A stretch of DNA of 64,000 nt from Patescibacteria group bacterium (lineage in GTDB: Bacteria; Patescibacteriota; Patescibacteriia; UM-FILTER-42-10). The DNA is taken from assembly GCA_041666845.1 (NCBI GenBank), contig JBAYGC010000003.1, positions 25,007-89,006 of the forward strand, read 5' to 3'. Numbering within the stretch: the first letter of the stretch is position 1; every line of letters starts with the position of its first letter. Positions 1 through 16,800 of this stretch are shown here, one piece after another. A model generated the notes under the pieces. The model ran no database searches, had not been told where the DNA came from, and saw only the letters and a program-made list of their open reading frames with translations. The translations under genes were made by a program, and so were the position numbers.

Positions 1-39
1 TACGAGGTTCGTTTCAAACTAAAATAAAATCGTTTGTAT

Positions 40-429
40 TTAATTAATCTCTAATCCCCTTTTCAGATTATCTAAAATTCTAAATATCATTTCAATAAAC
101 TTTGTATCTTTGCTATAATGCTGTGCAATATGTGGATAATATCTTGCATTACGACTTTTGTCTTTCAAACTTTTATAATTCTTATATATTACTGGTTTAC
201 TACTAAAACTACTGGCGATCTCCTTTTCAAATTGCATATAATTACTACAAATCTCTTTTCCAGGTGGCAATTTGGAATATATATAATGAAGTGCTGAATA
301 GAAAGAAATTGTAACAACCCAATCTAATTGGTTTGATCCAATAGTCACCAATGCATTAGCTAGACGTTCATTATGTCTTGCCTGAACAAGATGTTCATCT
401 GGTGTAAATGGATGTAGCTTTGCAACCAT
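40..429 (-). CDS. hypothetical protein; C-terminal R-x6-H (RNARYYPH) suggests a possible HEPN-like fold; in a very AT-rich islet
   Basis: Six-frame ORF of 129 aa. GC content of bases 1-800 (about 27%) is well below the window average of about 40%. No recognisable catalytic family beyond the Rx4-6H-like motif. Confidence 0.3.
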   Translation of the reverse strand: MVAKLHPFTPDEHLVQARHNERLANALVTIGSNQLDWVVTISFYSALHYIYSKLPPGKEICSNYMQFEKEIASSFSSKPVIYKNYKSLKDKSRNARYYPHIAQHYSKDTKFIEMIFRILDNLKRGLEIN

Positions 430-431
430 AT

Positions 432-722
432 TTACGCTGGCTTATATATAGTATAGTTACTTGGAACAATACTCTTAATTGGAAATTTGAATATTGGTGA
501 CAGTTTAAATTTAATATTATAAAGGGGATATTTCTTTATTGTTTTAAACTCTGCAGTGTAAATCTTATCCTCCAATTTTTCATCATAATCATCTATTAAT
601 GTAAATATTTCTATTGTATTAAAATCTATCTTATAATAAATACGAGGTCTTTTTGACCTAACAATATTACCAGAAATCTGGGTATAAAAATCTTTTAGAA
701 TTCTATTATTTTCCTCAGACAT
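432..722 (-). CDS. hypothetical small protein, probably co-transcribed with and upstream of 40..429 (2-bp gap)
   Basis: ORF of 96 aa, K/Y/I-rich, tightly coupled to the downstream ORF; together they form a two-gene module in AT-rich DNA. Confidence 0.3.
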   Translation of the reverse strand: MSEENNRILKDFYTQISGNIVRSKRPRIYYKIDFNTIEIFTLIDDYDEKLEDKIYTAEFKTIKKYPLYNIKFKLSPIFKFPIKSIVPSNYTIYKPA

Positions 723-813
723 AATTACCTCATACTCATTATACCATTAATAACTATCCACTTTATCCACAATCAAGTTATTTGTCAAATCATCCACCCT
801 AACACACATTTAT

Positions 814-1215
814 TTACTTGTTAACTTCCCTCTTCCACAAAACAGGGCCGATGGCGACACCGATAAATATCAAGTAAGCGCTCCACTGCCCGAACACCAC
901 CCCGGTCGTGCCGTTGCCGATCGTCACAACTAGTAGCATCACGACAATCATTAAAGACCAGATGATGCCGTAAGTCAGCGCGTGCCTGGCGGTTTCAATC
1001 GGCATTTTCCGGGAAACCCAGCCGGAGCAGAAAGTCATGGCGACAGCGATTACCAGTCCGACCCACCATGAATTTTCAAACGGCGTTTCCGACTGAGTGA
1101 TCATGGACATGATAAACAGCAGGACATTCACCAGAACATACAGTAATAATCCCCAGCCGAAAATTCTAAGAAATATTTTTCTGCGCATAGATATAGAGTT
1201 TAGTTGATTAATCAC
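814..1215 (-). CDS. hypothetical integral membrane protein (3-4 TM helices); GC-rich (~50%) relative to neighbours
   Basis: ORF of 133 aa with hydrophobic segments (LLLYVLVNVLLFIMSMI, VGLVIAVAMTF, WSLMIVVMLLVV). Its composition differs sharply from flanking DNA. Confidence 0.45.
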   Translation of the reverse strand: MINQLNSISMRRKIFLRIFGWGLLLYVLVNVLLFIMSMITQSETPFENSWWVGLVIAVAMTFCSGWVSRKMPIETARHALTYGIIWSLMIVVMLLVVTIGNGTTGVVFGQWSAYLIFIGVAIGPVLWKREVNK

Positions 1216-1372
1216 CTATTCCCCTATCTATGCTAATCATACGCCTAAATTGCCGAAAAAGAAAAATCTATCCAATTTGCCAAACCAAAAACCCAGCTAT
1301 TGCTGAAGTATCGGGACTCCTTCACCCGTATTCACGGGTTCGGAGTGGTTGCCGTTATTTTAGGGTTGCTGT

Positions 1373-1795
1373 TTATTTCAGTTCTTCCAGATAAGTTTTA
1401 ATAAAATTAGCGGTAGCCGTAATTGTTTCTGCTTTTGCCCCGCGCGGACTTTGTGCCACCCACATGGCAAAATTGTACAGTTCCGTATTATCCACCTTCA
1501 GCCACCTGTTGTTCATAAATAAGAAAGCCATCAATATTGTCATCGCTATTCTTTTATTGCCGTTTCTAAACGGATGATTCTTGATCAGTAAATAAAAAAG
1601 TACCGCCGCTTGCGTATTGATTCCTTTGTATAACGGCCTTTTGTTATATGTCTGAAAAGGCGTCTCCAAACAGCTCTCCAGGATATTGGGAAATCTGGTG
1701 GAAAATGCGGGTATCGGTTCATCATATGCCATCATTTCCTTCGCCAGTCTATAGGCGAGGTACTCTATTTCCATTAATGACAGTGTTTTGGTCAT
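1373..1795 (-). CDS. doc: Doc toxin (Fic/Doc family, death-on-curing type II toxin)
   Basis: Contains the Doc/Fic signature HPFRNGNKR (HxFx[DN][AG]NKR); ~140 aa, typical Doc length. Its ATG overlaps the TGA stop of the upstream HTH gene (ATGA at 1792-1795). Confidence 0.75.
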   Translation of the reverse strand: MTKTLSLMEIEYLAYRLAKEMMAYDEPIPAFSTRFPNILESCLETPFQTYNKRPLYKGINTQAAVLFYLLIKNHPFRNGNKRIAMTILMAFLFMNNRWLKVDNTELYNFAMWVAQSPRGAKAETITATANFIKTYLEELK

Positions 1796-2046
1796 GTGTT
1801 ACCAAGTAATCTTAATGTTTCACCATACTCTTTCACAACCTTCTTTACCGCTTTATTCACAACATCCTTTTCACTATCCTCTAAAGTATCTTTGAATACA
1901 CCCTTGAACTGATTTCTGCTTACCACAAAATTCCGGCCGATTTTTTCGGCCTTTATTTCACCCCTTTTGATCCGATTAAATACAGCTACCCGGCTAATCC
2001 CGAGCATTTCCGCAACTTCAGTAGTAGATAATAAGTCTTTATTCAT
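1792..2046 (-). CDS. HTH (excisionase/MerR-like helix-turn-helix) DNA-binding protein; putative antitoxin of the Doc module
   Basis: N-terminal motif TTEVAEMLGISRVAVFNRIKRGEIKAEKIGRNFVV is typical of HTH_17/excisionase-family binders. 84 aa, translationally coupled to doc. A palindromic operator sits just upstream. Confidence 0.6.
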   Translation of the reverse strand: MNKDLLSTTEVAEMLGISRVAVFNRIKRGEIKAEKIGRNFVVSRNQFKGVFKDTLEDSEKDVVNKAVKKVVKEYGETLRLLGNT

Positions 2047-2062
2047 AATATAATTTATTATT

Positions 2063-2103
2063 GTTAACTTAATAATATAATGTTAACATATGTTAATATT
2101 ATA
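2063..2103 (-). promoter_or_regulatory. putative promoter/operator of the HTH-doc operon: -10 TATAAT (2103->2098), 14-bp perfect palindrome TTAACATATGTTAA (2083-2096) and a second GTTAAC (2063-2068)
   Basis: Seen directly in sequence ~40-60 nt upstream of the HTH start (2046). TA antitoxins typically bind palindromic operators overlapping their own promoter. Confidence 0.45.
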
Positions 2104-2139
2104 GTCAATAGTTATCAATAATCTATACTCCCCCAAACC

Positions 2140-2168
2140 AAAAACCCATCCCGCGGACGCGGGACGGG
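2140..2168 (-). terminator. rho-independent terminator (stem CCCGCGTCCGCGGG + T-run on the minus strand)
   Basis: GC hairpin followed by a T-tract in minus orientation, downstream of rplL. Confidence 0.6.
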
Positions 2169-2189
2169 CATTGGCTTATTTCTTAATAG

Positions 2190-2213
2190 AAAAACACCCC
2201 TCGTAAGGGGCGT
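2190..2213 (-). terminator. rho-independent terminator (stem CCCCTTACGAGGGG + TTTTTCT on the minus strand)
   Basis: Second hairpin with T-tract downstream of rplL; together these form tandem terminators at the end of the rplJL operon. Confidence 0.6.
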
Positions 2214-2269
2214 CTTCCTTAGTTCTAAAAAGAGCAAACAATATAATATTAATTTCCGAGTTTCAGATA

Positions 2270-2366
2270 TTCCCTGAGCGAATCCCGTTCCCCGATCAAG
2301 TCGAGGACAAGTTTTGCGGGATGAGTCGAAGGGTGTAAACACTACAGTCCTTCGACGAGCTCAGGA
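2270..2366 (-). repeat. copy A of a ~90-100 bp palindromic repeat element (core: GTcCTGAGC..TCGAAGGAC..CTTCGA..CTCAGGGaATA), located in the rplL 3'UTR
   Basis: Shares termini and internal inverted repeats with copies at 3459-3544 and 13704-13804 in the same orientation (checked by eye). Confidence 0.6.
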
Positions 2367-2394
2367 CATATTACCTTTTCCCCAGTGACAGTAT

Positions 2395-2838
2395 CTATTT
2401 TAATGTTGCTGTTCCGCCAGCTGCTTCAATCTTCTTCTTGATTTCTTCTGCTTCTTCCTTTGGTACGCCTTCTTTAATAACCTTTGGCGCGCCGTCAACT
2501 AGATCCTTGGCTTCTTTCAAGCCTTTTTCTGTAACTTCTCTTACTACTTTGATTACGTTGATTTTGCTGTCACCGGTTGTGGTCAGTTCCACATCAAATG
2601 AAGATTTCTCTTCTGCTGCTTCGCCGGCTTCGGCTGCTGGCATTGCTCCCATCATCATTGGAGCGGCTGCGGATACGCCGAATTTCTCTTCCAGGATTTT
2701 GACCAGTTCGGCCAGATCCAGAGCAGTCATCTGCTCTACTTCTTCCACGAGTTTTTTAAACTTCGCAGGAACCTCTACTGCTTTTTTCTCTCCTGAAGCT
2801 GCCTCTGCTGGAGCTTCTTTCTTTACTTCTTCTGTCAT
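2395..2838 (-). CDS. rplL: 50S ribosomal protein L7/L12 (with ~20-aa N-terminal K/E/A-rich extension)
   Basis: Motifs [19 protein letters not shown] and the C-terminal domain [38 protein letters not shown] are diagnostic. Confidence 0.9.
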
Positions 2839-2890
2839 TTTTTTATTCCTTAATTAATGGCTTATTAAATAAATTGATTGATTACCATGG

Positions 2891-2918
2891 ATTCCCGCCT
2901 TCGCGGGAATGACATTTT
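2891..2918. repeat. REP-like small hairpin ATTCCCGC-CTTC-GCGGGAAT followed by GACATTT in the rplJ-rplL spacer
   Basis: Perfect 8-bp stem. Related GCGGGAATGAC / GAGAATGAC hairpins occur at 4440-4515 and 32153-32172. Confidence 0.45.
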
Positions 2919-2919
2919 A

Positions 2920-3444
2920 TTATGCTTTTTGCTCTTTAATGGCGTTTAGCGCATAGATGAACCCGCGCATATTGCCCTGCAGAACATTGACGATACCGAC
3001 CAGCGGTGCACGCAGACTACCGACGACCTGTGCCAATAGCTGTTCACGGCTCGGCAGGTTCGCCAGTTCCATTACTTTCGCCTGTTCTATATAACTGCCT
3101 TCCAGTATTCCGCCCAGGATCTGCAAAGTAACATTGTCTTTTTGGAATTTCTTCAGGATTCTGGCTGGAGCGACTTCGTCTTTGAAACCCATTGCAACTG
3201 CAATCTGCCCGTCCAAACCTTTGATATCCATTCCCTCAAGCTTCACTTCATCCAAAGCCCGCTTGATCAGGGTCTTTTTCGCGACATTGCATTCTACTTC
3301 TTCATCGCGGAGCAGTTGGCGCAAGTTTTCGAAACTCTTTACGTTTAAACCGGAATAGTTAATAAAAACAGCGGATTTCATTCCCGAAAGCCTCTCTACC
3401 AGTGTTTTTACTATTTCTTCCTTTTGTACTCGTGTTTTAGGCAT
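2920..3444 (-). CDS. rplJ: 50S ribosomal protein L10
   Basis: 174 aa, adjacent to and upstream of rplL in the conserved order; L10-like sequence (VFINYSGLNV..AKKTLIKRAL). Confidence 0.85.
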   Translation of the reverse strand: MPKTRVQKEEIVKTLVERLSGMKSAVFINYSGLNVKSFENLRQLLRDEEVECNVAKKTLIKRALDEVKLEGMDIKGLDGQIAVAMGFKDEVAPARILKKFQKDNVTLQILGGILEGSYIEQAKVMELANLPSREQLLAQVVGSLRAPLVGIVNVLQGNMRGFIYALNAIKEQKA

Positions 3445-3458
3445 GTTTTTTTCATTAT

Positions 3459-3544
3459 TCCCTGAGTGAAGTACCGCGCAAGCGGTACGTAATCGAAGGG
3501 TCTGGATTTTAATGTCCTTCGACTCACTTCGTTCGCTCAGGAAC
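3459..3544 (-). repeat. copy B of the palindromic repeat element, 15 nt upstream of the rplJ start codon (5'UTR)
   Basis: agttCCTGAGCGaacgaagtGAGTCGAAGGACatt..CCCTTCGAttac..cttcaCTCAGGGAATAATg in minus orientation. Termini are inverted repeats (ttccctgag / ctcaggaac). Confidence 0.6.
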
Positions 3545-3711
3545 TATTCATAATTAAAAAATCTGCGGTAATCACCACAGAAAAACAGCTTGTTTTGTAC
3601 CTCGGTAGGATTTACGGCCATTTTTGTGGCCACCTACTGTCTGTGGCGATATTTAGTTGTAATTCCCAGTTTACACTCTTAAAATAAATCGTCAAGTACC
3701 AATCAGGAAAT

Positions 3712-4395
3712 TTACCCGATTACCGTACCGGAAAACGGCTTTTTCTGCAAAAATCGTTTAAAGTTAGCCAAATTAGTGCCTTTCATCACCACCACCCGGA
3801 TCCCCGCTTTTTCTGCCCTCTTGGCAGCTACGGGATCAAACGGGGCGTTCATTCCCGGTACATATTTACCCCCGATTACTTTTTTGAACTCCTGCCAGGT
3901 CATCACTCCGATTCGCTTAGCGTCTTTGTATTTCCGGGGATCTTTGTCATAAACATGGGAAATATTGGAAAGATTGACCACGGTCTTGGCACCATACTGT
4001 TCCGCCAGAATCACCGCATCCAGATCGGAAGATGAGCCGGGTACATAGCCGGAGCCGATGATTATTTTCTTTTTGGTATTAATTTTCCGGTGGGGATTAT
4101 CTAATACTTTTTCGTAAGCCAGCGTGCCGAAGATTACCCTGATTAGTTCTGCATTCAACTTCGTGGCGGAGATTCCCAGCCAGTCCAGATTATCAGGAGA
4201 TACTTTAGTAACCTTTTCCGCGGCGGCGTTATATTTCCGGCAGACCTTCCCTCCTCCGGCTACAATAACGATCTTGGAATACTTGCTTTGATTTTTAATA
4301 ATCAGCTCACGGAATTTTTTCAGGAATACCCAGTTCACTTCATCAGGAACTATGATTGATCCGCCCAGGGAGATTATGACTGATTTTTTTTTCAT
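3712..4395 (-). CDS. pyrH: UMP kinase, archaeal-type amino-acid-kinase family
   Basis: 227 aa. Motifs VIISLGGSII..IVIVAGGGKVCRKY and GSGYVPGSSSDLDA match the glycine-rich loops of the aspartokinase/UMP-kinase fold. Confidence 0.6.
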   Translation of the reverse strand: MKKKSVIISLGGSIIVPDEVNWVFLKKFRELIIKNQSKYSKIVIVAGGGKVCRKYNAAAEKVTKVSPDNLDWLGISATKLNAELIRVIFGTLAYEKVLDNPHRKINTKKKIIIGSGYVPGSSSDLDAVILAEQYGAKTVVNLSNISHVYDKDPRKYKDAKRIGVMTWQEFKKVIGGKYVPGMNAPFDPVAAKRAEKAGIRVVVMKGTNLANFKRFLQKKPFSGTVIG

Positions 4396-4551
4396 AATTG
4401 TGTTTTTTAATTCATGGCAACTCTAAACAAATTCATCATTATTTACTTGTCATTCCGTACTTGATACGGAATCTAGTTGGAATGTAGATTCCCGGGTCAA
4501 GCCCGAGAATGACATTTTTGGGAAAACCGAATTTGTTTAGAGTAATGTTAA

Positions 4552-5601
4552 TCAATCTAAATATTTTGCTTTATTTTGCAGATGCTCGTCATAGGTCTTG
4601 CTGAATACTGTGGTGCCATCTTCTTTGGTTAAGAAATATAAATAGTCGCTGTCCTCTGGATAAATGGTAGCCACGATCGAATCCATCCCCGGATTGGAAA
4701 TCGGTCCCGGTGGCAGTCCCCGGTTCTCGTAAGTGTTGTATGGATTTTGAATTTCCGTATCGGCAAAAGTCGGTTGCAATGCACTTTTGCCCGTAATGTA
4801 GTTTACCGTCGCATCAGACTCCAGCGGAATTTCGTTTGCCATGCGCGTATAAAATATTCCGGCTGCTATTTTCTTATCCGCGGTCGTGCGCACTTCTTTT
4901 TCCACGATACTGGCTAAAGTAATAATATCATAAATAGTTTTTCCCTGACGTGAAATTTCGTCCCGCATCTCCTGTGTGAGCTTCACATCAAAGTTGTCCA
5001 GCATTTTTTCGATCAGGTGCGCCGGGTCAGAGTTTTTAAAAATACGGTAAGTGTCCGGAAAGAGAAATCCCTCCAGCCCCTGATCCACCGGCTTGCTCGA
5101 AAGGAAGTCGTAGGTTTTGTCCGGAATGATTGAATGTGAATCAACAGTATTCACGACCGTTAAAAATTCATCAATATATTCGCTTTTGGATATTTTTCCG
5201 TCAGCCTCGGCAAAATCCGCCATGTATGTCGCAATCTCGGTACTGGACCAGCCTTCCACAATTGTTACCAGTCGTTCCCTGGACAGTGCGTCGCCGGACA
5301 CCAGCAGATTTGCCAGCTCCATCATGTTCAGATTCTGCGGAATATAATAATCCCCTGCCTTCAACTTGCTTTCATAATGTTTGAGCCAGATATAAGTGCG
5401 GAATATAAAATCATTTCTGCTCAGACCCTCCGTCTCCAGATTAGCACTGATTTTTTTTACACCTTCGCCGGATTCAATGATAAAAAGTTTTGCCTCAGCA
5501 TCGCTGGTTGCTTTGGCATTGATCTGATAATTAAAATAAAACAAGCCGGCCAAGCCGATAAGTATTATGATGCTGATAATAAAGAGTACAATTTTTTTCA
5601 T
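4552..5601 (-). CDS. mltG: endolytic murein transglycosylase MltG (YceG family)
   Basis: N-terminal TM anchor, conserved GLPPGPISNPG block and YceG-like length (349 aa). Confidence 0.8.
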   Translation of the reverse strand: MKKIVLFIISIIILIGLAGLFYFNYQINAKATSDAEAKLFIIESGEGVKKISANLETEGLSRNDFIFRTYIWLKHYESKLKAGDYYIPQNLNMMELANLLVSGDALSRERLVTIVEGWSSTEIATYMADFAEADGKISKSEYIDEFLTVVNTVDSHSIIPDKTYDFLSSKPVDQGLEGFLFPDTYRIFKNSDPAHLIEKMLDNFDVKLTQEMRDEISRQGKTIYDIITLASIVEKEVRTTADKKIAAGIFYTRMANEIPLESDATVNYITGKSALQPTFADTEIQNPYNTYENRGLPPGPISNPGMDSIVATIYPEDSDYLYFLTKEDGTTVFSKTYDEHLQNKAKYLD

Positions 5602-5678
5602 CCCGTTAGAAATTCCTGTATTTAGTAATAAAATATATTCCCGTATCCCACCCGTTAGTAATGATAATTTCTAACGGG
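5602..5678 (-). promoter_or_regulatory. 5' leader of mltG carrying the inverted repeat CCCGTTAGAAATT ... AATTTCTAACGGG (plus an internal CCCGTTAG), ending directly at the ATG
   Basis: Half-sites at 5602-5614, 5651-5658 and 5666-5678; the same architecture is found at asnS (52565-52656). Confidence 0.45.
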
Positions 5679-5729
5679 ATTCATCCGATATTAATTTCTA
5701 GATTAATTATAAATGATATTCTCTAACGT

Positions 5730-6818
5730 TTATAGGTATTTTTCGTTCTCTTTGTTCTTCTGCAATTCTTCTACAATCTTCTTCGCTTCATCCGACCGTT
5801 CTCTGGGGCACACCAGCAGTGCGTCATCCGTATCAATAATCACCATGTCATCCAGACCAATGGTGGCAATAACTTTATCTTTATTTCCGTAGATCATGCA
5901 GTCGGTAGTGTCCATGGGTATTACATTTCCTTTTACTAAATTGTCACCCTGATTGTTTGGTAATAGATCTTTGATCGTATGCCATTTGCCCAGATCGCTC
6001 CAGCCGATTCGATTGGAAACACACATCGCTATTTTTTCTGCCTTGTCGGTGATGGCAGTTTCGATCGACATTTTTTCCAGCGCAGAATATATTTCAGCAA
6101 TCTTCTCTTCCTGTCCACCAAGTTTCAAAAGCTCCACAATCTCCCGGCACGCTTCCAGTATTGCCGGCTGGTATTTTTCAAATAATTTAATAATTGTTGA
6201 GAGTTGCCAGATGTACATGCCGGTGTGGTAGAAGTAACGGCCGGAAGCAATCAGCTCTTTGCAATAATCCAGATCCGGCTTCTCCACCCAGTCCGCAACT
6301 TTAAATATCGCTTCTTCCCCTTTTTCCTGCAGTACGTCTCCGGATTTAATATAACTGTATCCGGTGTCCGGGTAGTTCGGTTTGATCCCCGGCGTCATAA
6401 TGTATTCCGGATTTTCTTTCAGGAAAATTTCCGCGGTCTGAAGCAAAGTTCGGAAAGCTTCCGGGTCGGTGATGTAATCATCAGACGGCAAACTGGCGAC
6501 TACTTCATGATCCGAAAACCGCTCCGCGATCAGAACGCTCTCCAGACAAATCGCCGGTCCAGTATTCTTGCTGGCGGATTCCGGAATAATATTTTTTTCG
6601 GAAACATTCGGCAAATATTTTTTTACCAGATGCTTCACCGATTCATTGACTGAAATAAAAAGATCGTCCTCAATATTTATTAAAGGGGCGATTCTGTCTT
6701 GTGTGTCCTGAATTAAAGCTTTGTCGCTGGCGATTGCCTGAAACTGTTTCGGATTATTTTTTCTGCTGAGAGGCCACAGCCTGGTACCTACTCCGCCGGC
6801 GCGAATAACTATCTTCAT
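5730..6818 (-). CDS. manC: mannose-1-phosphate guanylyltransferase (sugar nucleotidyltransferase, GDP-mannose pyrophosphorylase-like)
   Basis: N-terminal IRAGGVGTRLWPLSR nucleotidyltransferase motif; 362 aa, ManC/CpsB-like. Confidence 0.7.
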   Translation of the reverse strand: MKIVIRAGGVGTRLWPLSRKNNPKQFQAIASDKALIQDTQDRIAPLINIEDDLFISVNESVKHLVKKYLPNVSEKNIIPESASKNTGPAICLESVLIAERFSDHEVVASLPSDDYITDPEAFRTLLQTAEIFLKENPEYIMTPGIKPNYPDTGYSYIKSGDVLQEKGEEAIFKVADWVEKPDLDYCKELIASGRYFYHTGMYIWQLSTIIKLFEKYQPAILEACREIVELLKLGGQEEKIAEIYSALEKMSIETAITDKAEKIAMCVSNRIGWSDLGKWHTIKDLLPNNQGDNLVKGNVIPMDTTDCMIYGNKDKVIATIGLDDMVIIDTDDALLVCPRERSDEAKKIVEELQKNKENEKYL

Positions 6819-6857
6819 GTGATTAGTTTAATTAGCAGTGAATAATTATTATTAATA

Positions 6858-6981
6858 AATTCTAAACCCTAAGCCCTAAATCCTAAATAAATTACAAACG
6901 GTATTGCTTTTCTCGATTTGTAAATTGCGATTTGAAATTTTGGATATTATTTGGAGTTTAGAATTTAGGATTTAGAATTTT
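6858..6981. repeat. imperfect ~30-bp inverted repeats built from degenerate CCCTAA/TCCTAAAT units flanking a nested palindrome (ATTACAAA..TTTGTAAT)
   Basis: aaattctaaaccctaagccctaaatcctaaat at 6858-6889 versus reverse complement of atttggagtttagaatttaggatttagaattt at 6950-6981. Lies in the intergenic region between pcm and manC. Confidence 0.4.
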
Positions 6982-6989
6982 TCAAAACA

Positions 6990-7616
6990 TTATCCTTCTC
7001 TATCAGAGATCAGCGGTACAAACTGGAAACCGGGATAACTTTTGGTTTTGATTTTATCCGGCGCCTGTTTTTCCACCACCACGATATCCTGCACGGCATC
7101 GCCGATCGGAATTACCAGTTTACCACCCACCTTCAATTGGTCAATCAGTGCCTGCGGAATTTCCCGCGCTGCCGCCGCCACGATTATTTTGTCATAAGGC
7201 GCGTATGCCCTCAGACCCTTCGACCCGTCACCGTACGTATGGGTGATATTGATAAATTTATATTTCTTAAGATTCTCTTCCCCGAATTTTTTCAGTTCTT
7301 CAATTCGCTCAATGGCGTACACGTGCCCCTGATCACCGACTATTTCAGCCAGTAGTGCGGTCTGCCAGCCGGACCCGGAACCCACATCCAGTATCCTTTC
7401 TCCTGCTTCCGGCTCCAAAACCTCCAACATAAAAGCCACCGTCATCGGCTGGGAGTTGGTTTGTCCATGCCCGATATGCAAAGGGGCGTTAACCGCCTCC
7501 TTGTCTTTCATGTTTTCCGGCAGAAAATCACGTCTTTTTACCCTATAAAAGGCATTAATTATCTCGGGATTACGCAAATAGCCCTGTCCAATCAGGTCTT
7601 TTACCAGGTTCTCCAT
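6990..7616 (-). CDS. pcm: protein-L-isoaspartate O-methyltransferase
   Basis: SAM-binding motif ILDVGSGSGWQTALLAEIVG and PCMT-like N-terminus (LIGQGYLRNPEI..FYRVKRRDFLP). The ORF extends to 7706, but the ATG at 7616 (MENLVKDL) fits PCMT family N-termini. Confidence 0.8.
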   Translation of the reverse strand: MENLVKDLIGQGYLRNPEIINAFYRVKRRDFLPENMKDKEAVNAPLHIGHGQTNSQPMTVAFMLEVLEPEAGERILDVGSGSGWQTALLAEIVGDQGHVYAIERIEELKKFGEENLKKYKFINITHTYGDGSKGLRAYAPYDKIIVAAAAREIPQALIDQLKVGGKLVIPIGDAVQDIVVVEKQAPDKIKTKSYPGFQFVPLISDREG

Positions 7617-7772
7617 GGTTGTTTTATGCATGAATATCATATTCATATGTATGCTTAGTTTATCATCTTTTCGTGAAAAATAGAAATAAAAGAAAAAGTT
7701 ATCCACAGGTCATCAATATTGGCTAATATATAGTTAAAATTAGCTATATTTATCCAGATCAAATCGATTATG

Positions 7773-7801
7773 TTGACATTTTATATATGTTGTGCCATAA
7801 T
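7773..7801 (+). promoter_or_regulatory. sigma70-like promoter P1 of the giant surface-protein gene (TTGACA-17-CATAAT)
   Basis: TTGACA 7773-7778, 17-nt spacer, CATAAT 7796-7801. Confidence 0.4.
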
Positions 7802-7804
7802 CTA

Positions 7805-7832
7805 TTGACAAATTTTGTAATTGTGCTATATA
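7805..7832 (+). promoter_or_regulatory. sigma70-like promoter P2 (TTGACA-16-TATATA with TG extension)
   Basis: TTGACA 7805-7810; tgcTATATA 7824-7832; about 100 nt upstream of the ATG at 7933. Confidence 0.4.
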
Positions 7833-7932
7833 TAGCATGTTACTAAAAATATAAAACTCTGCCTGGCGACCGCTAGAAGTTACCGGCAGTACTTGAAAAA
7901 TAAATAATCTAATCATTAGCACTAACCACACA

Positions 7933-10900
7933 ATGAACGCTAATCATTACAACTCGAACCCGAAGAAACGGGGGAAGTTTTATCGTGTCGTCAACATTAT
8001 TGTCATGACGGCTTTTTTATTTAATATGACCGCAACTCAGGGGCTTTTAATGCTGTCCCCTGCTCAAGCGCAGGCAACACAGGACAAATATACTCTGTGC
8101 CATGCTACAGGTAGCGATACTAACCCTTGGGTTAGGATTCATGTTCCAGAGTCTGCCTTACCCGCACACCTTGATGGAAATGGCACTCCCCTGGCAGGAC
8201 ATGAAGACGATGTATATTTAGGCTTGGATAATGCCGATCTACTGCAATGTCCCACACCACCAGTAAGCTGTCCGAATGTTTTTGGGGACAATTTTGAGAG
8301 TTATTCAGTAGGCACAATTCCATTACCCTGGTCGCAAAATTATGGGGTAACAATAGAAGATATAAATGGAACGCATGAAAAAATTGCAAAAATGAATTCC
8401 AGTGAAAGTCATGATGAAGAAAGAATGTGGACCACGATTGATACTTCAGGCCGTACTAATCTAAAACTGCGTTATGATCAAAAAACTGATGGTCTTGAAA
8501 GAAATGAGCAGGATGTTTTTACCTTAAAATACAAAATCAACAGTGAATCCAGTTGGAATGTATTGTACCAAACAGATGTTAATGACAGTTGGGATCATAT
8601 GGTCTTCAACTTACCTAATGCAAACCAAATCACTATTAGCTTTGGCCTACTAGGCACAAATGAAAACGATAAGGCGTTTGTTGATAATGTAACCTTATCC
8701 GGCTGTGTTGCAAACGTATGCGGTGACGAAACAGTTGGCGGTGACGAAGAATGCGATGATGGAAATGTAAATGACGGTGACGGATGCAGTGCAACTTGTA
8801 CTATTGAAACCTGCACTGACACAGATAATGATACAATCTGTGACGATATAGATAACTGCCCATCAATACCAAACCCAAGTCAAAACGATGCCGATGCTGA
8901 TGGTGTCGGTGATGCATGTGATATGTGCGCAGGTGCCGATGATGCATTAGATAATGAAGGTGATGGAATACCAAACGGTTGTGATAATTGTCCTTGGGAA
9001 CCAAACTGGGATCAAACAGACACAGATAACGATGGTGTAGGGGACGCGTGTGATGAACCGGTTTGCGGTGATGGCAATTTAGATGAACCACAAGAAGAAT
9101 GCGACGACGGAAATGGTGAAAATGGTGACGGATGTTCCGCACAATGTACATTAACCTATAATATCCAAGGACAGAAATGGAACGATGAAGACAATGACAG
9201 TTATTGGGATGATAATGAAAGTCCTCTTGCAGGAGTAGAGATAACATTAGATGGCGGAAATAGCGGAACAGTATACACAAATGCGAACGGTGAATACGAA
9301 TTTTCCGGTTTGCTTCCAAATAACTACACCGTTTGCGAAGTAGTTCAAGATGGATGGGAACAGTCGCTACCTGGCACGGGTTCAGGAGACTGTTACGAAA
9401 TAACACTGCCCGATGACGGTCAAACCACTTATAATTTTGGCAATCATCAGATAGATAATGTTACAATCGTCGCATATAAAATTGTCTGCACAGAAGAATC
9501 CGACCTACCTAACTGGGGAAATGGCGGAGAGAACATTACTGCGGCAACTGCCCAGAATTGGGTAGACAGCCACGATTCATGTGAATTTGAATCAGATTGG
9601 AATTTCCAATGGCGTGTAGATAGTGGCAACCCATACAATCCAGGCGATAATACTGGTGAATCTGTTGGCACCGATTGGACAACATTTGGTCTTACCGATG
9701 GAAATGGAATGACATCCACTGAAATTGATTTTGATCTCGCAGACAAATTTTGGTTCCGTGAAGTTATGCAGCCAGGATATATTCCTTTCACCTATAACGT
9801 TGCAGGAAATAACAGCAATAATGTTTCAGCCGAATTCTACTGCAGCTCAGATGTCTTAAACTATGACAACTTAGAATGGATTGATAATATGACTCCGGGC
9901 GAAACATATCATTGTGTTGCCTGGAACGTTCAAGCTCAACCGACTAAAGGTGACCTGACAATCTGTAAATACAATGATGTTGACAGCGATGGTGAATATT
10001 CCGACCTGATTGACACTCCTCTGCAATGGGAAATGAATGTTGAAGCTATGTCTGGAGTAGCGGATGGTAGTATTTGGGGTACCGGTACAAACAGCGAGAC
10101 CGGTTGTGTTACGCTTGCTGATATGTGGCTCGGAGAATATCGCGTCACTGAAACAGCTGTAGACGGTTGGTCACCAACCAATCCGGTAAGCGGAGATCAA
10201 TCAATAGAACTTACTGCCGAAAACCCAGATCAGACTGTTCGATTCCTAAACGAGCAGGTTTATGACCTGCATGGTTACAAATGGAATGATTTGGACGGTG
10301 ATAGATATCCTGATTGTAATCCGGTTAAAGGAGCTGAACTGACAACAGCCGCTACTCCCCCGCTGGATTGTGAACCAAGACTTTCAGGTTGGACAATCTT
10401 TATTGATGAAAATGAAAATGGAATTCTGGATGGCGAGGAACAGTCAACTATTACTTCAGATGATCCGGAACACTTAGGCTGGTATTGGTTCGAAGATCTC
10501 CCAGCCGGCGATTATCGTGTCTGTGAAGTACAGCAGTCTGACTGGGCACAAACCTATCCTCAAACCGCTGACGGCTGTCACACAGTAACACTCCCGACAA
10601 TGACCGAAGGTGACACCTGTATTTCAGAATATGCTCTCAATGGAGTAGATAACGCGCCTTCAATCTGTAACTTTGGTAATATTCACGACAAAGGCGATTT
10701 GACAATCGTTAAATACGATGATGATGAGAATCTGATGGCCGAAGTAGAATTCCAAATTGATGGTGAAACATACTGGACTAATGGTAATGGCGAAATCGTA
10801 CTAGAAGATATTTTGACCGGCTATCACATTGTAGAAGAAATGGGCATGGATAATTATACCTTTACATCTGTAACTGGTGATAATTGCACAAACAGCAATC

Positions 10901-13357: not shown

Positions 13358-13703
13358 TTACCGGATTAATCTACTTGCCAAAATTAGATGAAATATGGTC
13401 TAGCCTATTGACAAAAAAACTGTAAACTGTAAGATGTAGGAGCTATAAATAGTTCTTTAGGCGTTGCACATTATCATGGAGGAAGAACACGAGCTTATGC
13501 TAGTGTTTGGGGGGAATAGAAAACCAACAAAAGGTTATAAAAAAACCAAAATAAAAGAGTACTAGAAGCATACACCTTTGAAAATCGCTATATTTAGCGA
13601 ATTTGTAACTTGTTGTTGGTTTTTTGTATTCATAAAAAACCTTGCAAATTAGCACATTTAATATGAAATAATTCCCTCTTGATAGGGACTAGAAACAAGA
13701 ATA

Positions 13704-13804
13704 GTTCCTGAGCGCCTGTGGTGAGCACAGTCGAACCAAAGTCGAAGGACAATATAACAAATACTTCGACAGAGTTTATCCCGATGAATATCGGGACTCA
13801 GGGG
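13704..13804 (+). repeat. copy C of the palindromic repeat element, 30 nt upstream of the second giant gene
   Basis: aGTTCCTGAGCGcctgtgGTGAGcacaGTCGAAccaaaGTCGAAGGACaat..aCTTCGAcag..gACTCAGGGGATAATt. Confidence 0.6.
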
Positions 13805-13833: not shown

Positions 13834-16800
13834 ATGAAAATTAATCTACTACCTAAGAAGAAAGCGGTATGGAAAATGACCTATAAATCATTCCATATTG
13901 TTGCGTTAATTGCCCTAATATTTAATATGTCTTCAGTTGGGGTATTTTTTACCCCGAATACAGCTCTTGCTGCCGAAAAAACATCGGAAACAGTTGATAA
14001 AACCACCTGTGCGGAAGGTGAAAAATGCGAAGATACCGGCACAATCCTGATCAAAAAATTCCTGGATCTGGATAGGGATGGCGTTCGTGATACCAATGAA
14101 ACATTACTGCCAAACTGGCATTTTACTATTGTAAACGGTGCATATAGTACTGAAGGTGCTACCAACAGTGAAGGTGTGCTGACTCTACTTGATATGCCAA
14201 TTGGTACCTACCAGGTAACTGAAACACTGCAGCCGGGCTGGACTAATACCACACCCCTGACCCAGTCAGCAGTTGTTACGAAGGACAACACAACTATTCT
14301 GCATTTCGGTAATATTGAGCAACATATTGGAAACCTCAGAATCAAGAAATATAACGACTTAAACAGTGATGGCGTCAAACAGACAAACGAACCGTATATG
14401 ACCGGCTGGCATTTTGACGTTACACAAAACGGCCAATTTATTGCTGACGGTAATACCGGAGAAGACGGTGATTGGCTGATTATTGAAAACCTGCCGGTTG
14501 GAATATATACAGTTACAGAAACCCAGCAGGACGGGTGGATAAATACTGATCCGGGCACCAACCCAATCAAGAAAGATGTTAATGTTACAGAAAATACTAT
14601 TACATATCCCACAAATGTGTGGTTCGGTAATGCTGAAATTCCAGGCGAATGCAAATTGGAAATAACAAAATCAGTAAATAAGACCGAAGCAGAGCCTGGC
14701 GATACGCTGGAATACACTTTGTCCTATGAAAACGTCGGAACAGCAGACTGCACCGGTGGTGGAGTACAGCTTTTTGACAATCTGGACAGCAGGCTGACAT
14801 ACAACGGCACTCACTCACAGGATAATACCGATCATGATATAACCTTTGAAGGTAATTTTGACGGAACTGATCCGGTAGCCAATGCACACGTGGTCAGTCC
14901 GGGCGAATCCGGTCATGTCACATTTCAGGCAACTATCACTGAAGATCTGAAGTGCGGTGAAAATAATATTCCGAATAAATACAGAATCTGGAGCAATGAA
15001 ACCGGTGATATCTGGAGCAATGAAGTGAACACAAGCGTTTACAAAGAATGCTACGGATCACTGAAAGTTATCAAGCATGTTGATTTCGGTGAAGCAACAC
15101 CTGATATGTGGGAATTTACAGTTCCGGGATACGGAACCCAGTCCCCTATTGACGGTCAAGATTATGTGATCTTCTCCCAGCTTCCTGAAGGACTATACTC
15201 AGCAACAGAAAGCACAATCCCCGGTTACCATCAGGTATCTTCTACCTGCAACAACGTACAGGTAAACCCGGGCGAACAGGCAGAATGCGTCTTCCACAAT
15301 ACCAAGGATACTTTCTGCAAAATGAATTTCACAAAATCTGTTGATAAAGAAAATGCATTACCAGGCGATGTCGTTACCTATACTCTGAATTATGAAAACA
15401 CCGGCGACGCAGACTGCACCGGTGGTGGCGTGAAAATATATGATGATCTGGATAATAAATTAACCTATGTCGATAATTCTCTTACCGGTAATGAATACAA
15501 CGGTAATGGCGACGGAATATCTCTGTTCGAAGAATTCGACGGCGTTAATCCGCTGGCCAACGCACATGAAGTAATCCCCGGTGAATCGGGTGTCATTACC
15601 TTCCAGGCAACAATTACCGATGATTTGGAATGCGGTGAAACCATCATCCCGAACAAAGCCAAACTCTGGAGTAATGAAACAGGGTATTTCTGGAGTAATG
15701 AAGTAAACACAACTGTCTTCAATCAATGCTACGGATCGTTGAAGGTAATCAAATACGTGGATGAAGGCGATGCAACTCCTGATATGTGGGACTTCACGAT
15801 TGCCGAACACGGGACACTGTCCCCTGCTGAAGGCGATAACTATGTTGTCTTCACACAGATGCCGGAAGGATTCTATGCGGCATCAGAGAGCAATCTGGCG
15901 GGCTACCACCAGGTATCCTCAACCTGCGATAATGTTGAAGTTATCACTGGCCAACAGGCGGTTTGCGAAATCCACAACACAGTTGATCACTATGATATTA
16001 ACGGATACAAATGGAACGATCTGAACGGCAACGGTGAATGGGATCAGAGTGAACCGGGAAAATCCGGTTGGACAATCAATCTGAATACTTTTGAAGGAAC
16101 CCTTCTGGATTCAACCGTTACCTCAGATAATAACGAAGATCTTGGTCACTATGAATTCTCCGATTTACTACCTGGCATCTACCAGGTTTGCGAAGCGCAA
16201 AGTGAAGGCTGGTACCAGACCTATCCGTCCGAAAACAACGGCTGCCATTTTATCTACCTCGGACCAAATGCCGATAATGAAGTAATGTCCTATAACTTCG
16301 GTAACACTGGTTATGGTGAAATTTCCGGAGCAAAATTTGACGATGCCAATGGTAATCACATCTGGGATACCGGCGAACCGGGACTGGAAGACTGGACCAT
16401 AGCGCTCCAATCCAGCTGTTCTGAAGTATTTGCTGACTACGACTTAGAATCTGATTCGGTAATCAACCTGTCAGATGTAAGCCTGTTTGCTGAAAAATAC
16501 GCCCTAGGCAATACACTAGTTGATCTAAACGGTGATGCGGTCGTGAATAACTATGACCTTAACTGCTTCAAAAACGTACTCAGCGCGACCCCGGAAACTA
16601 TGACGGAAAATCCGATCATTACAAAGACAACTGATGCTAGCGGTTATTATCAATTTACCGGTTTGGAAACAGGCGCGTACAATGTATCTGAAGTACAGCA
16701 GACCGGCTGGGCACAAACATTCCCAGAGAGTAACGGAGGCGCTTACGGACCGATTGTTATTACTTCCGGAAAAGTATCAACCGATAATGACTTCGGTAAC

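Follow-up and report, generated by a model that had tools for sequence, protein, structure and literature searches.

HEPN/MNT pairs are considered the most abundant type of toxin-antitoxin (TA) system, and the accepted mode of neutralisation is AMPylation by the MNT partner. A pair of small genes in the DNA analysed here has the gene order of the type VII HepT/MntA system of Shewanella (SO_3166/SO_3165; structures 5yep, 7aer and 6m6v), and the models of its two proteins resemble the two subunits at the level of the fold, moderately so in the case of the partner. The motifs differ: RX4HXY is missing from the 129-aa protein, and GSX10DXD from its 96-aa partner. In class II HEPN/MNT pairs (PF05168 with PF01909; Yao et al. 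2020, PMC7641770), two small genes are likewise arranged with the partner at the 5' side and the HEPN gene at the 3' side. The PF05168/AF0298-type HEPN protein of that class also has no RX4HXY and carries a conserved Tyr beside a conserved Arg, corresponding to R96-Y97 here. However, the class II partner retains GSX10DXD, which is absent here and family-wide, and neither the 96-aa nor the 129-aa protein alone reaches any Pfam model. The best structural match of the 129-aa protein is AF_0298 (2hsb), of the HEPN-T family described by Anantharaman et al. in 2013 (PMC3710099). There, too, the motif retains its Arg but has no His, and a second conserved His is located upstream, as in the wider family of the 129-aa protein; it has been proposed as part of an alternative active site. 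The 129-aa protein itself has a Tyr at the second-His position and is paired with a non-canonical partner.

Two further systems are close to this locus. Like Phd/Doc of phage P1, it encodes a Doc protein with the H-x-F-x-[DN]-[AG]-N-K-R motif, preceded by a small, translationally coupled antitoxin gene and a palindromic operator at the promoter (here predicted), but the candidate antitoxin is of the HTH_17 (excisionase/MerR) type and not Phd/YefM. With defence islands and integron-like cassette arrays it shares fixed flanks, exchangeable cargo and short hairpin repeats that bound the cassettes, and, as in integron-like arrays, the exact stretch between two copies of the repeat is subject to a strain-level indel. 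In contrast to such arrays, no integrase or recombinase is annotated in the surrounding 10 kb, the repeats do not correspond to attC sites, and only a handful of cassettes is involved.

Organization and Composition of the Region

The window, i.e., the whole 64-kb stretch of DNA analysed, belongs to a Patescibacteria genome. A variable region of ~6 kb lies downstream of rplJL, and bases 1-2103 of the window make up its rplL-proximal portion. The region is read, with a probability of about 0.6, as carrying two independent TA-type cassettes and one small membrane gene. Five ORFs are present, all on the minus strand (40-429, 432-722, 814-1215, 1373-1795 and 1792-2046). They are considered real genes because their dN/dS values lie between 0.06 and 0.17 across the whole set.

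The overall GC content of the window is 40.8%. A preliminary description of this DNA had proposed a compositional mosaic, with ~27% GC in bases 1-800 and ~50% in 814-1215. The mosaic holds, at measured values of 28.2% and 47.5%. The first of these is the lowest in the 64 kb, and 400-nt segments at or below 28% GC are found in bases 1-800 only. Codon usage, suggested there as a check and determined as GC3 over 67 ORFs (mean 0.40, sd 0.073), gives outliers in both directions: the 129-aa and 96-aa genes have a GC3 of 0.20 each, ~2.8 sd under the mean, and the membrane gene has the highest value of all ORFs, 0.62. The Doc gene (0.475) is no outlier, and the HTH gene (0.365) is less than 1 sd from the mean. 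The two small ORFs of the AT-rich part, described as the content of this block, do not form a complete unit, as the block is cut by the window edge and continues for ~1.1 kb beyond base 1, including a third gene of 336 aa.

The 129-aa Protein of the AT-Rich Pair

The AT-rich pair comprises the following features:

40-429, minus strand: predicted 129-aa HEPN-fold protein of the AF0298/PF05168 type, downstream gene of the pair (AF2 with Foldseek, family profile)
432-722, minus strand: upstream gene, coding for the 96-aa partner, which lacks GSX10DXD and has a predicted MNT-like alpha/beta fold (AF2 with Foldseek)
723-813, minus strand: predicted promoter of the pair (promoter scan) and left break point of the AT-rich slot (homology with L102)

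The AF2 model of the 129-aa protein (pLDDT 88) displays a four-helix up-down HEPN fold. Its top Foldseek match is 2hsb, the HEPN protein AF_0298 (TM 0.67-0.68, prob 1.0), followed by HepT toxins. Searched with the protein itself, Pfam, NCBIfam, PADLOC and PHROGs gave nothing above noise, and tblastn against plasmids gave no match. A profile search retrieved 1,502 relatives of ~120 aa each, counted as clusters at the 50% identity level, from soil, peat, sediment and groundwater metagenomes. The Pfam HEPN model PF05168 is matched by 15 of 70 family members (best 3e-6), and hhalign of the family against four PF05168 HEPN proteins of the PDB yields E=1e-3 at a probability of 22%, with R96-Y97 falling on the invariant RYP.

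The conserved motif of the family, S-x-N-A-R96-Y97-x-P, is located in the last core helix. Among the 70 sequences, Y97 is invariant and R96 nearly so, and A-R-Y is conserved in 60; H13 and H48 are likewise invariant or near-invariant. The conserved A-R-Y is in agreement with the description of AF0298-type HEPN proteins (PMC3710099) and with class II HEPN (PMC7641770). An R-x6-H had prompted the preliminary description to suggest a HEPN-type RNase. The suggestion is borne out at the level of fold and superfamily, by the 2hsb match and the hhalign register, but not in its motif: R93-x6-H100 is present only in the 129-aa protein and its 71% orthologue, R93 being Glu in P0003 and P0004 and H100 being Ala in P0005. 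RX4HXY matches as a regular expression in 3/70 members, none of them in register. Fold models and profile alignments thus place the 129-aa protein, as a prediction, within the HEPN superfamily, as the AF0298/PF05168 type. A J-domain (6rzy, E=0.03-0.06), the sole match of PDB searches with profiles of HEPN-like proteins, was dropped as a chance likeness to the helix II-III pattern, because the match is not significant and the segment is missing from the 129-aa protein.

A His-x-x-Arg is also conserved in the family, with the H64 column conserved at 90% or more and H58-x-x-R61 invariant in A11. HEPN proteins of the wider family are probably RNases that would act through an alternative site made of this His-x-x-Arg and the Arg-Tyr motif. 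The 129-aa protein and its L007 orthologue (L007 and L102 are two related genomes) have Tyr64 and Phe67 at these positions. Since His and Arg are replaced, the catalytic competence of this copy is doubtful, despite the purifying selection on its gene (dN/dS 0.11).

The 96-aa Partner and the Pairing

The AF2 model of the 96-aa protein (pLDDT 89) has as its top Foldseek matches 1no5 (HI0073 MNT) and 5yep/7aer (MntA), at TM 0.54-0.57, prob 0.98-1.0 and E=5e-3 to 2e-2, with ferredoxin-like and other alpha/beta folds close behind. The model lacks the helix after strand 1, which in MNTs carries the GS loop. GSX10DXD was found in register in none of eight close homologues, the broader family giving six scattered regular-expression matches in 74 sequences, and no acidic residue is invariant in the partner family. 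Sequence searches with 27 partner-family members returned no match in Pfam, NCBIfam or the PDB, and PADLOC and PHROGs returned nothing above noise for the 96-aa protein. The partner profile aligned with four MNTs of the PDB without significance (hhalign, prob 0.3%), and a viral structure library gave only weak matches to the model. The strands R-I-Y-Y...I-E-I-F had suggested a RelE/ParE-type toxin, an assignment that was given up in view of the fold matches.

The association of the two genes is strict. They are 2 nt apart here, and a partner gene precedes the HEPN-like gene in 8/8 close loci. In a metagenome scan for the broader family, seeded with a 10-sequence alignment, all 74 loci have an adjacent upstream ORF, and 73 of these ORFs match the partner profile after one iteration. 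The spacing in both sets consists of small gaps or overlaps, and the pair is distributed patchily across genomes of 21-53% GC. The promoter predicted for the pair comprises TTGACA (788-783), a 17-nt spacer and TAAAGT (765-760), with GAGG before the ATG. The orthologous region of L007 has an identical -35 element and spacing, with TAAAAT.

The earlier proposal of a two-gene, TA-like module is upheld by this strict pairing, and the AT-rich pair appears, from sequence comparison, to be such a module of a large, unnamed family. MntA-style AMPylation of the HEPN protein by the 96-aa partner is not expected, because the GS loop and the DxD carboxylates are missing. The partner would most likely control the HEPN protein by direct binding, in the fashion of type II systems. 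A broader proposal can be made only tentatively, the odds being against it: the pair may represent a large HEPN-based two-gene family undescribed so far, in which an MNT-fold partner without NTase chemistry exerts a control different from type VII AMPylation; in this Patescibacteria lineage, both the module and the genes around it would be swapped as cassettes at conserved hairpin repeats, with no local recombinase.

The HTH-Doc Cassette and Its Promoter

The second cassette and the gene next to it are composed of:

814-1215, minus strand: gene of a small membrane protein, 133 aa long if started at GTG and 124 aa long if started at the ATG at 1188
1373-1795, minus strand: Doc (Fic-fold) toxin, 140 aa (Pfam Fic, TIGR01550, motif)
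1792-2046, minus strand: 84-aa antitoxin candidate with HTH_17 of the excisionase/MerR type (Pfam HTH_17, TIGR01764)
2047-2122, minus strand: predicted HTH-Doc promoter and putative operator (repeat and promoter scans)

The toxin had been described as a bona fide Doc, and the curated models agree: it scores 41.5 bits with Pfam Fic PF02661 (cutoff 24, 2.4e-10) and 51.1 bits with TIGR01550 DOC_P1 (cutoff 38.65, 1.4e-13), and its translation contains H74-P-F-R-N-G-N-K-R82, which fits the Doc motif. In the PDB it matches 9vzc, a death-on-curing family protein, with the catalytic motifs aligned, and NCBI annotates it as a type II TA toxin of the death-on-curing family. RhuM/Fic/Doc proteins contain, in their C-terminal domains, the closest plasmid-borne kin of the Doc domain, and PDC-S23, a candidate system of PADLOC, is also among its nearest relatives. 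The dN/dS of Doc is 0.06-0.10.

The upstream gene scores 33.4 bits with Pfam HTH_17 (cutoff 27, 5.4e-8) and 1.7e-7 with TIGR01764. Its product has an N-terminal HTH_17 domain followed by a charged C-terminal tail of ~40 aa, and no Phd/YefM match was found at E<=1 in Pfam and NCBIfam. The ATGA at 1792-1795, in which the HTH stop overlaps the Doc start, confirms the coupling described before, and the same HTH-Doc pairing is present in L007 and L102. Family scores, motif and gene coupling together argue for an ordinary type II toxin-antitoxin pair. By family, Doc would be a Fic-fold kinase that blocks translation via phosphorylation of EF-Tu. From the architecture of the HTH_17 protein, its C-terminal tail would neutralise Doc, and the operon would be repressed by its HTH at the palindrome of TTAAC repeats that overlaps the promoter.

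This promoter is predicted to consist of a -35 TTGACT (2108-2103) and a -10 TGT-TAACAT (2085-2080). A perfect palindrome, TTAACATATGTTAA, is located at 2083-2096 within a 66-nt imperfect palindrome (2057-2122), and four (G)TTAAC motifs are present; a putative palindromic operator lies upstream of the coupled genes. In L007, where the background identity is ~76%, the -35 hexamer is conserved together with AAGTTAACAATAA and the TTAAC motifs, all of which are also present in L102. The conserved form of the promoter is TTGAC(T/A)-N17-TGT-TAAC(A/C)T. The preliminary description had placed a TATAAT promoter over the perfect palindrome. The palindrome stands, but the TATAAT adjoins it without overlap and is not kept in the orthologous L007 locus.

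The membrane protein has four hydrophobic stretches, as judged by eye, and no family match above cutoff in Pfam, NCBIfam, PADLOC or PHROGs. Its gene is absent from L007 and located beside HTH-Doc in L102, with which it is co-inherited there, with 89.5% aa and 86% nt identity and a dN/dS of 0.075. A GC-rich foreign insert was considered for it and rejected, because its synteny extends to L102 and its rate of divergence is that of core genes.

Repeats of the rplL 3' Flank

Three repeat and terminator features surround the HTH-Doc cassette:

1280-1373, minus strand: second copy of the sequence flanking rplL on its 3' side, adjoining the Doc stop codon (repeat matches)
2133-2242, minus strand: two predicted intrinsic terminators after rplL (terminator scan)
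2260-2392, minus strand: Y-shaped hairpin repeat element, CCTGAGC...GCTCAGG (repeat scan, fold energy)

The rplL terminators are located at 2197-2209 and at 2144-2169, the latter with its tail at 2133-2148. The first is orthologous to the post-rplL terminator of L007. The hairpin element is inserted between the rplL stop and the rplL terminator, and a second copy lies at 3450-3552. The fold energies of the two copies are -43.5 and -35.6 kcal/mol (z-scores -2.2 and -5.0), and bases 1-2400, the element included, contain no Rfam match.

Three parts make up the duplicated flank: an 18-nt sequence at 1356-1373, which is a relic of the rplL end, the hairpin element (CCACTCCGA...GAAGGAGTCCCG), and a terminator whose tail, TGGGTTTTTGGTTTGG, lies at 1280-1295. 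The 18-mer has two matches in the 64 kb, the relic and the true rplL end (2396-2413), at 0.01 expected, and the 16-mer terminator tail is found at 1280-1295 and 2133-2148 only. L102 has an rplL end that matches the relic at 100% identity, and in that genome the hairpin element comes after both rplL and Doc. HTH-Doc thus appears to be bracketed by a duplicated rplL 3' flank.

The Locus in Related Genomes

The region had been described as a variable locus, and this is supported by the comparison with other genomes. Among 80 other species, none has a gene of the region at a distance of up to 8 kb from rplL. In the same slot of the sister genome L102, AT-rich genes of 347 and 234 aa replace the 96-, 129- and 336-aa genes. 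The break points lie at gene boundaries with shared flanks, one at the start of a 61-aa gene and the other at the membrane-gene stop, where the homology with L102 breaks off precisely. No Pfam, PADLOC, PHROG or PDB match was obtained for the genes that occupy the slot in L102 and L007. L007 contains both the pair and HTH-Doc, in a different order. In the precomputed Pfam annotation of called genes, no recombinase, integrase or transposase is present within 10 kb.

These comparisons point to a long-lived cassette hotspot and not to a recent island. Cassettes would have been inserted, moved and replaced beside short hairpin and terminator repeats.

Alternative Explanations

The AT-rich pair might not be a TA system. 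A domesticated, non-catalytic complex, such as an adaptor joined to a HEPN protein that binds a ligand or RNA, in a regulatory or sensor role, is rather unlikely, yet several observations fit it. HEPN domains turn into substrate-binding or regulatory domains once their catalytic residues are lost (PMC3710099), and the 129-aa protein has neither the canonical Rx4-6H nor the His-x-x-Arg of its family. Its Tyr64/Phe67 are common to the L007 orthologue and maintained under purifying selection, and the partner is devoid of any NTase motif. On the other hand, the strict two-gene architecture (8/8 and 74/74 loci), the patchy distribution and the position in a variable slot beside another TA pair are all characteristic of selfish TA or defence modules, and R96, Y97, H13 and H48 are still invariant or nearly so. 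It is improbable, further, that the AT-rich block is a single three-gene defence system in which the 336-aa protein is the effector and the pair its regulator. All three genes are at ~25% GC and fill one slot between the membrane-gene stop and the 61-aa-gene start. The 336-aa protein contains YEIRSSIAHGN (R-x4-H-G-N), and a 30-residue local similarity to the 347-aa slot protein of L102 falls at the same R-x4-H motif, although weakly (E=0.1). However, the downstream genes all differ in seven other distinct pair loci, L007 has no gene related to the 336-aa protein, and this protein has no match in Pfam, PADLOC, PHROG or the PDB, so that its HEPN nature is putative.

That the region is a recently acquired genomic island, whose mosaic marks fresh horizontal transfers, is very improbable and largely refuted for the pair, Doc, HTH and membrane genes. 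The GC3 outliers in both directions, the missing genes near rplL in the 80 other species and the different cargo of the sister-genome slot would be in agreement with it. Against it, the nucleotide identity to L007 is 74-75% for the pair and 76-78% for HTH-Doc, compared with 72-79% for the flanking core genes, and the pair has a GC3 near 0.2 in both lineages, though dS exceeds 1. In the comparison with L102, synteny is preserved for HTH-Doc and the membrane gene, with an identity like that of core genes, and the composition of Doc and HTH is ordinary. The proposal of acquired modules therefore does not hold as a recent event, and the reading as two independent TA-type cassettes and a membrane gene in a long-lived hotspot is preferred.

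Significance

Patescibacteria have small genomes and few annotated defence systems. The locus provides a clean three-genome case of cassette turnover at fixed break points in this group. If the tentative proposal for the AT-rich pair is true, a large sister family that lost the catalytic residues and kept the fold would represent a second way to control HEPN proteins, and it would add one more unannotated family to the catalogues of TA and defence systems.

Layout and Composition of the Islet

The genes of the islet and of the adjacent rplJL operon are listed below in order of transcription.

2920-3444, minus strand: rplJ, first in transcription order
2395-2838, minus strand: rplL, after rplJ
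1792-2046, minus strand: HTH gene, after rplL
1373-1795, minus strand: Doc gene, after the HTH gene
814-1215, minus strand: small membrane protein gene, after Doc
432-722, minus strand: 96-aa partner gene, after the membrane gene
40-429, minus strand: 129-aa HEPN-like gene, last of these genes

The GC content of bases 1-800 is 28.2%, compared with 40.8% for the window, and a scan of the whole window found 400-nt windows at or below 28% GC only within these bases. The third-position GC (GC3) of the 67 ORFs of the window averages 0.40 (sd 0.073). Both the 96-aa and the 129-aa genes have a GC3 of 0.20, while the membrane gene has the highest value of the window, 0.62, which bears out the compositional mosaic reported in the preliminary description. 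Doc was not marked as an outlier (0.475), and the HTH gene (0.365) lies less than one sd from the mean. Other features described before were also found in the sequence: the ATGA overlap, the palindrome TTAACATATGTTAA at 2083-2096 and both rplL terminators.

The window was matched to a 265-kb contig from a Patescibacteria MAG, JBAZSK010000002.1 of GCA_041662505.1, which is also present as JGI Ga0376277_0000340. The JGI copy of the contig, L001, extends past window base 1. The reverse complement of its bases 10429-1 corresponds to window bases 1-10429 at 99.98% identity. The two copies differ at 2 of 10,429 bases, one of which changes residue 16 of rplL (Gly versus Glu; rplL is located at 2395-2838 in the window and 7592-8035 in L001). 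In L001, the low-GC block continues for ~1.1 kb past base 1 and contains a third gene, of 336 aa. Beyond it lie genes of 61 aa and 305 aa and one for a flavodoxin, with normal or high GC.

The rplJL operon itself is bracketed by copies of a Y-shaped hairpin repeat (CCTGAGC...TCGAAGG...CCTTCGA...GCTCAGG), at 2260-2392 and 3450-3552, with a partial copy at ~13699-13742. One separates the rplL stop codon from the terminator of that gene, and the other is located between the L10 leader (RF00557, 3547-3664, minus strand; 57.9 bits in Rfam, gathering score 44) and the rplJ start codon, so that ~100 nt of inserted repeat separate leader and start. They fold with energies of -43.5 and -35.6 kcal/mol, corresponding to z-scores of -2.2 and -5.0, and the repeat has no Rfam match. 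The locus of the related genome L007 carries ends related to this repeat.

The 129-aa HEPN-Like Protein

The 129-aa protein has no match in Pfam, NCBIfam or PADLOC. A word-based search identified four relatives, and the profile built from them detected 1,502 proteins (E ≤ 1e-3) in a database of 1.84 billion representatives, nearly all of them 115-135 aa long. The AlphaFold model is all-helical (pLDDT 88). Its best structural match in the PDB is AF_0298, a HEPN protein (2hsb; TM 0.67, probability 1.0), followed by HepT toxins. The Pfam HEPN family PF05168 is matched by 15 of 70 family members, and a profile-profile comparison with four PDB proteins of PF05168 (E = 1e-3 over 86 columns) places R96-Y97 on their invariant R-Y-P. 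The earlier guess of a HEPN protein thus stands as far as the fold is concerned, but the motif that prompted it, R93-x6-H100, is not conserved among the homologues.

The conserved motif of the family is S-x-N-A-R-Y-x-P, with [AS]RY present in 60 of the 70 members. Such a motif agrees with the HEPN-T family of the AF0298 type, which lacks the motif His and conserves another, upstream His (PMC3710099), as well as the class II HEPN proteins of Yao et al., in which RX4H is absent and the Tyr is kept (PMC7641770). The broader family has this upstream His without exception, as H-x-x-R, and it aligns with the conserved His of the PDB PF05168 proteins. At this position, Tyr64/Phe67 is found in the window protein as well as in the L007 orthologue, and the window copy may have undergone catalytic decay. 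The H-x-x-R is also partly lost in other family members of the Patescibacteria type.

The sole PDB sequence match of two alignments of the family (profiles A2 and A11) was the J-domain 6rzy (E = 0.03-0.06). It covers the segment ...HP..H...Y..L.D...R.Y. of the HEPN-like profile and was judged a chance resemblance.

The 96-aa Partner and the Two-Gene Module

For the 96-aa protein, one close homologue was found, and a profile that also took in the products of genes just upstream of HEPN-like genes yielded eight members of the partner family. The model has an alpha-beta-beta-alpha-beta topology (pLDDT 89). Its best PDB matches, at TM 0.54-0.57, are HI0073 (1no5) and MntA (5yep, 7aer), both of them MNT subunits from HEPN/MNT systems; the scores of other small alpha/beta folds are only a little lower. 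The partner differs from a canonical MNT, as neither GSX10DXD nor any invariant acidic residue was found in the family, and the model shows a tight hairpin where MNTs have a helix after the GS loop. Searches of Pfam, NCBIfam and PDB sequences with 27 partner members were empty, and hhalign of the family against four PDB MNTs was not significant. Given the missing motif and these sequence results, the MNT relationship stays a lead at the level of the modelled fold, strengthened only because the neighbouring gene is a HEPN.

The partner gene is located directly upstream of the HEPN-like gene in all eight distinct close loci, with a spacing from a 6-nt gap to a 29-nt overlap; the exception is locus L020, where start-codon calling leaves the called genes ~170 nt apart. 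Of 80 loci from metagenomes that carry the broader family, 74 have room upstream, and each of these has an adjacent upstream ORF on the same strand, of 91-212 aa in 73 loci and 381 aa in the other (L106). The window-type partner profile matches 53 of the 74 ORFs directly and 73 after one iteration. As the genes 3' of the pair vary between loci, the module consists of two genes. The contigs that carry the pair have a GC content of 21-53%, and in most loci the GC of the pair is at or below that of the host. The pair represents a new variation on the HEPN/MNT theme and comes from a large unnamed family; its mechanism is inferred.

The HTH-Doc Cassette

Doc scores above the cutoffs of Pfam Fic and TIGR01550 and carries the motif H74-P-F-R-N-G-N-K-R82, and its sequence aligns with that of a death-on-curing protein of solved structure. 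Among plasmid sequences, it is closest to the C-terminal domains of RhuM/Fic/Doc proteins, and its top PADLOC match is the candidate PDC-S23. In the protein encoded upstream, residues 5-45 form an HTH_17 (excisionase-type) domain, and a charged tail follows. Upstream of the cassette, alignment with the orthologous region of a related genome revealed conservation of TTGAC(T/A), a 17-nt spacer and TGT-TAAC(A/C)T, together with four (G)TTAAC motifs and AAGTTAACAATAA. The TATAAT hexamer previously proposed as the promoter is absent from these conserved features. Such a layout is standard for an autoregulated type II toxin-antitoxin operon, in which Doc would be toxic and the HTH protein would neutralise it. 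The HTH-Doc pair belongs to an already known kind of system.

Traces of Cassette Movement

Three elements directly follow the Doc stop: a relic of an rplL end, a hairpin element and a terminator. The relic, the 18-nt AACAGCAACCCTAAAATA at 1356-1373, has 100% identity with the 3' end of rplL in the sister genome L102 and matches the window's own rplL end at 16 of 18 nt; it has only two matches in the 64 kb (0.01 expected). The hairpin element, CCACTCCGA...GAAGGAGTCCCG, is present in L102 after both rplL and Doc. The 16-nt tail of the terminator, TGGGTTTTTGGTTTGG, has its sole other copy on the upstream side of the HTH promoter. The rplL 3' flank has thus been duplicated, with a copy on either side of HTH-Doc.

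In L007, the cassette borders are marked by a 24-nt perfect palindrome, AGGCGCGATTCGCGAATCGCGCCT, within a ~105-bp repeat, at 12264, 14359 and 17225. The 64-kb window contains no copy of it, and L001 contains one (14223-14247), 3.8 kb beyond the window edge; it is kept between genomes that are only ~75% identical. Exactly the 2.87 kb that separates copies 2 and 3 of the repeat is missing from a JGI strain variant. No recombinase is annotated within 10 kb of the locus.

Between rplL and HTH-Doc, L102 also contains (4892-5008) a 117-nt copy, at 84% identity, of L001 13218-13334, comprising the 3' end of the flavodoxin gene and its ATTCCCGC...GCGGGAAT hairpin. This second gene-end relic suggests recombination at terminator hairpins.

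The Locus in Related Genomes

The genes for PCMT, NTP-transferase, YceG, AA-kinase, rplJ and rplL are common to three related genomes. The core genes of L007 are 72-79% identical in nucleotides to those of the window genome. Its pair directly follows rplL (74-75% identity, GC3 0.21-0.23), HTH-Doc is found 3 kb further on (76-78%), and the membrane gene and the 336-aa gene are absent from the locus. In L102 (a 1.18-Mb contig; core identity 76-91%), rplL, HTH-Doc and the membrane gene keep the arrangement of the window. Unrelated 347-aa and 234-aa genes (27% GC) occupy the slot that runs from the membrane-gene stop to the start of the 61-aa gene, and homology ends exactly at that stop and that start. 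None of 80 species-level loci has islet genes within 8 kb of rplL. In most of these related loci, a convergent gene of ~700 aa follows rplL. rpoBC does not follow rplJL in the window; synteny is lost at this point in the window genome, L007 and L102.

AT-rich cargo proteins of 336 aa (L001 10489-11499), 347 aa (L102 6432-7475) and 197 aa (L007 11527-12120) are encoded beside the pair or within the slot it occupies. They are mutually unrelated, and no database matches were found for them. All three contain [RK]-x4-H-G (IRSSIAHGN, IKVIISHGN and FRCDGVHGW, respectively), a motif that could mark HEPN-type nuclease domains.

The gene order of L007, the cargo of L102 and the 0/80 count support the proposal that this locus is a hotspot. 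Every islet gene has a dN/dS of 0.06-0.17. Recent acquisition is not supported, since L007 and the window genome have diverged to a dS above 1 and the GC3 of the pair is still ~0.2; the modules of the islet are long-standing residents of a variable locus rather than recent imports.
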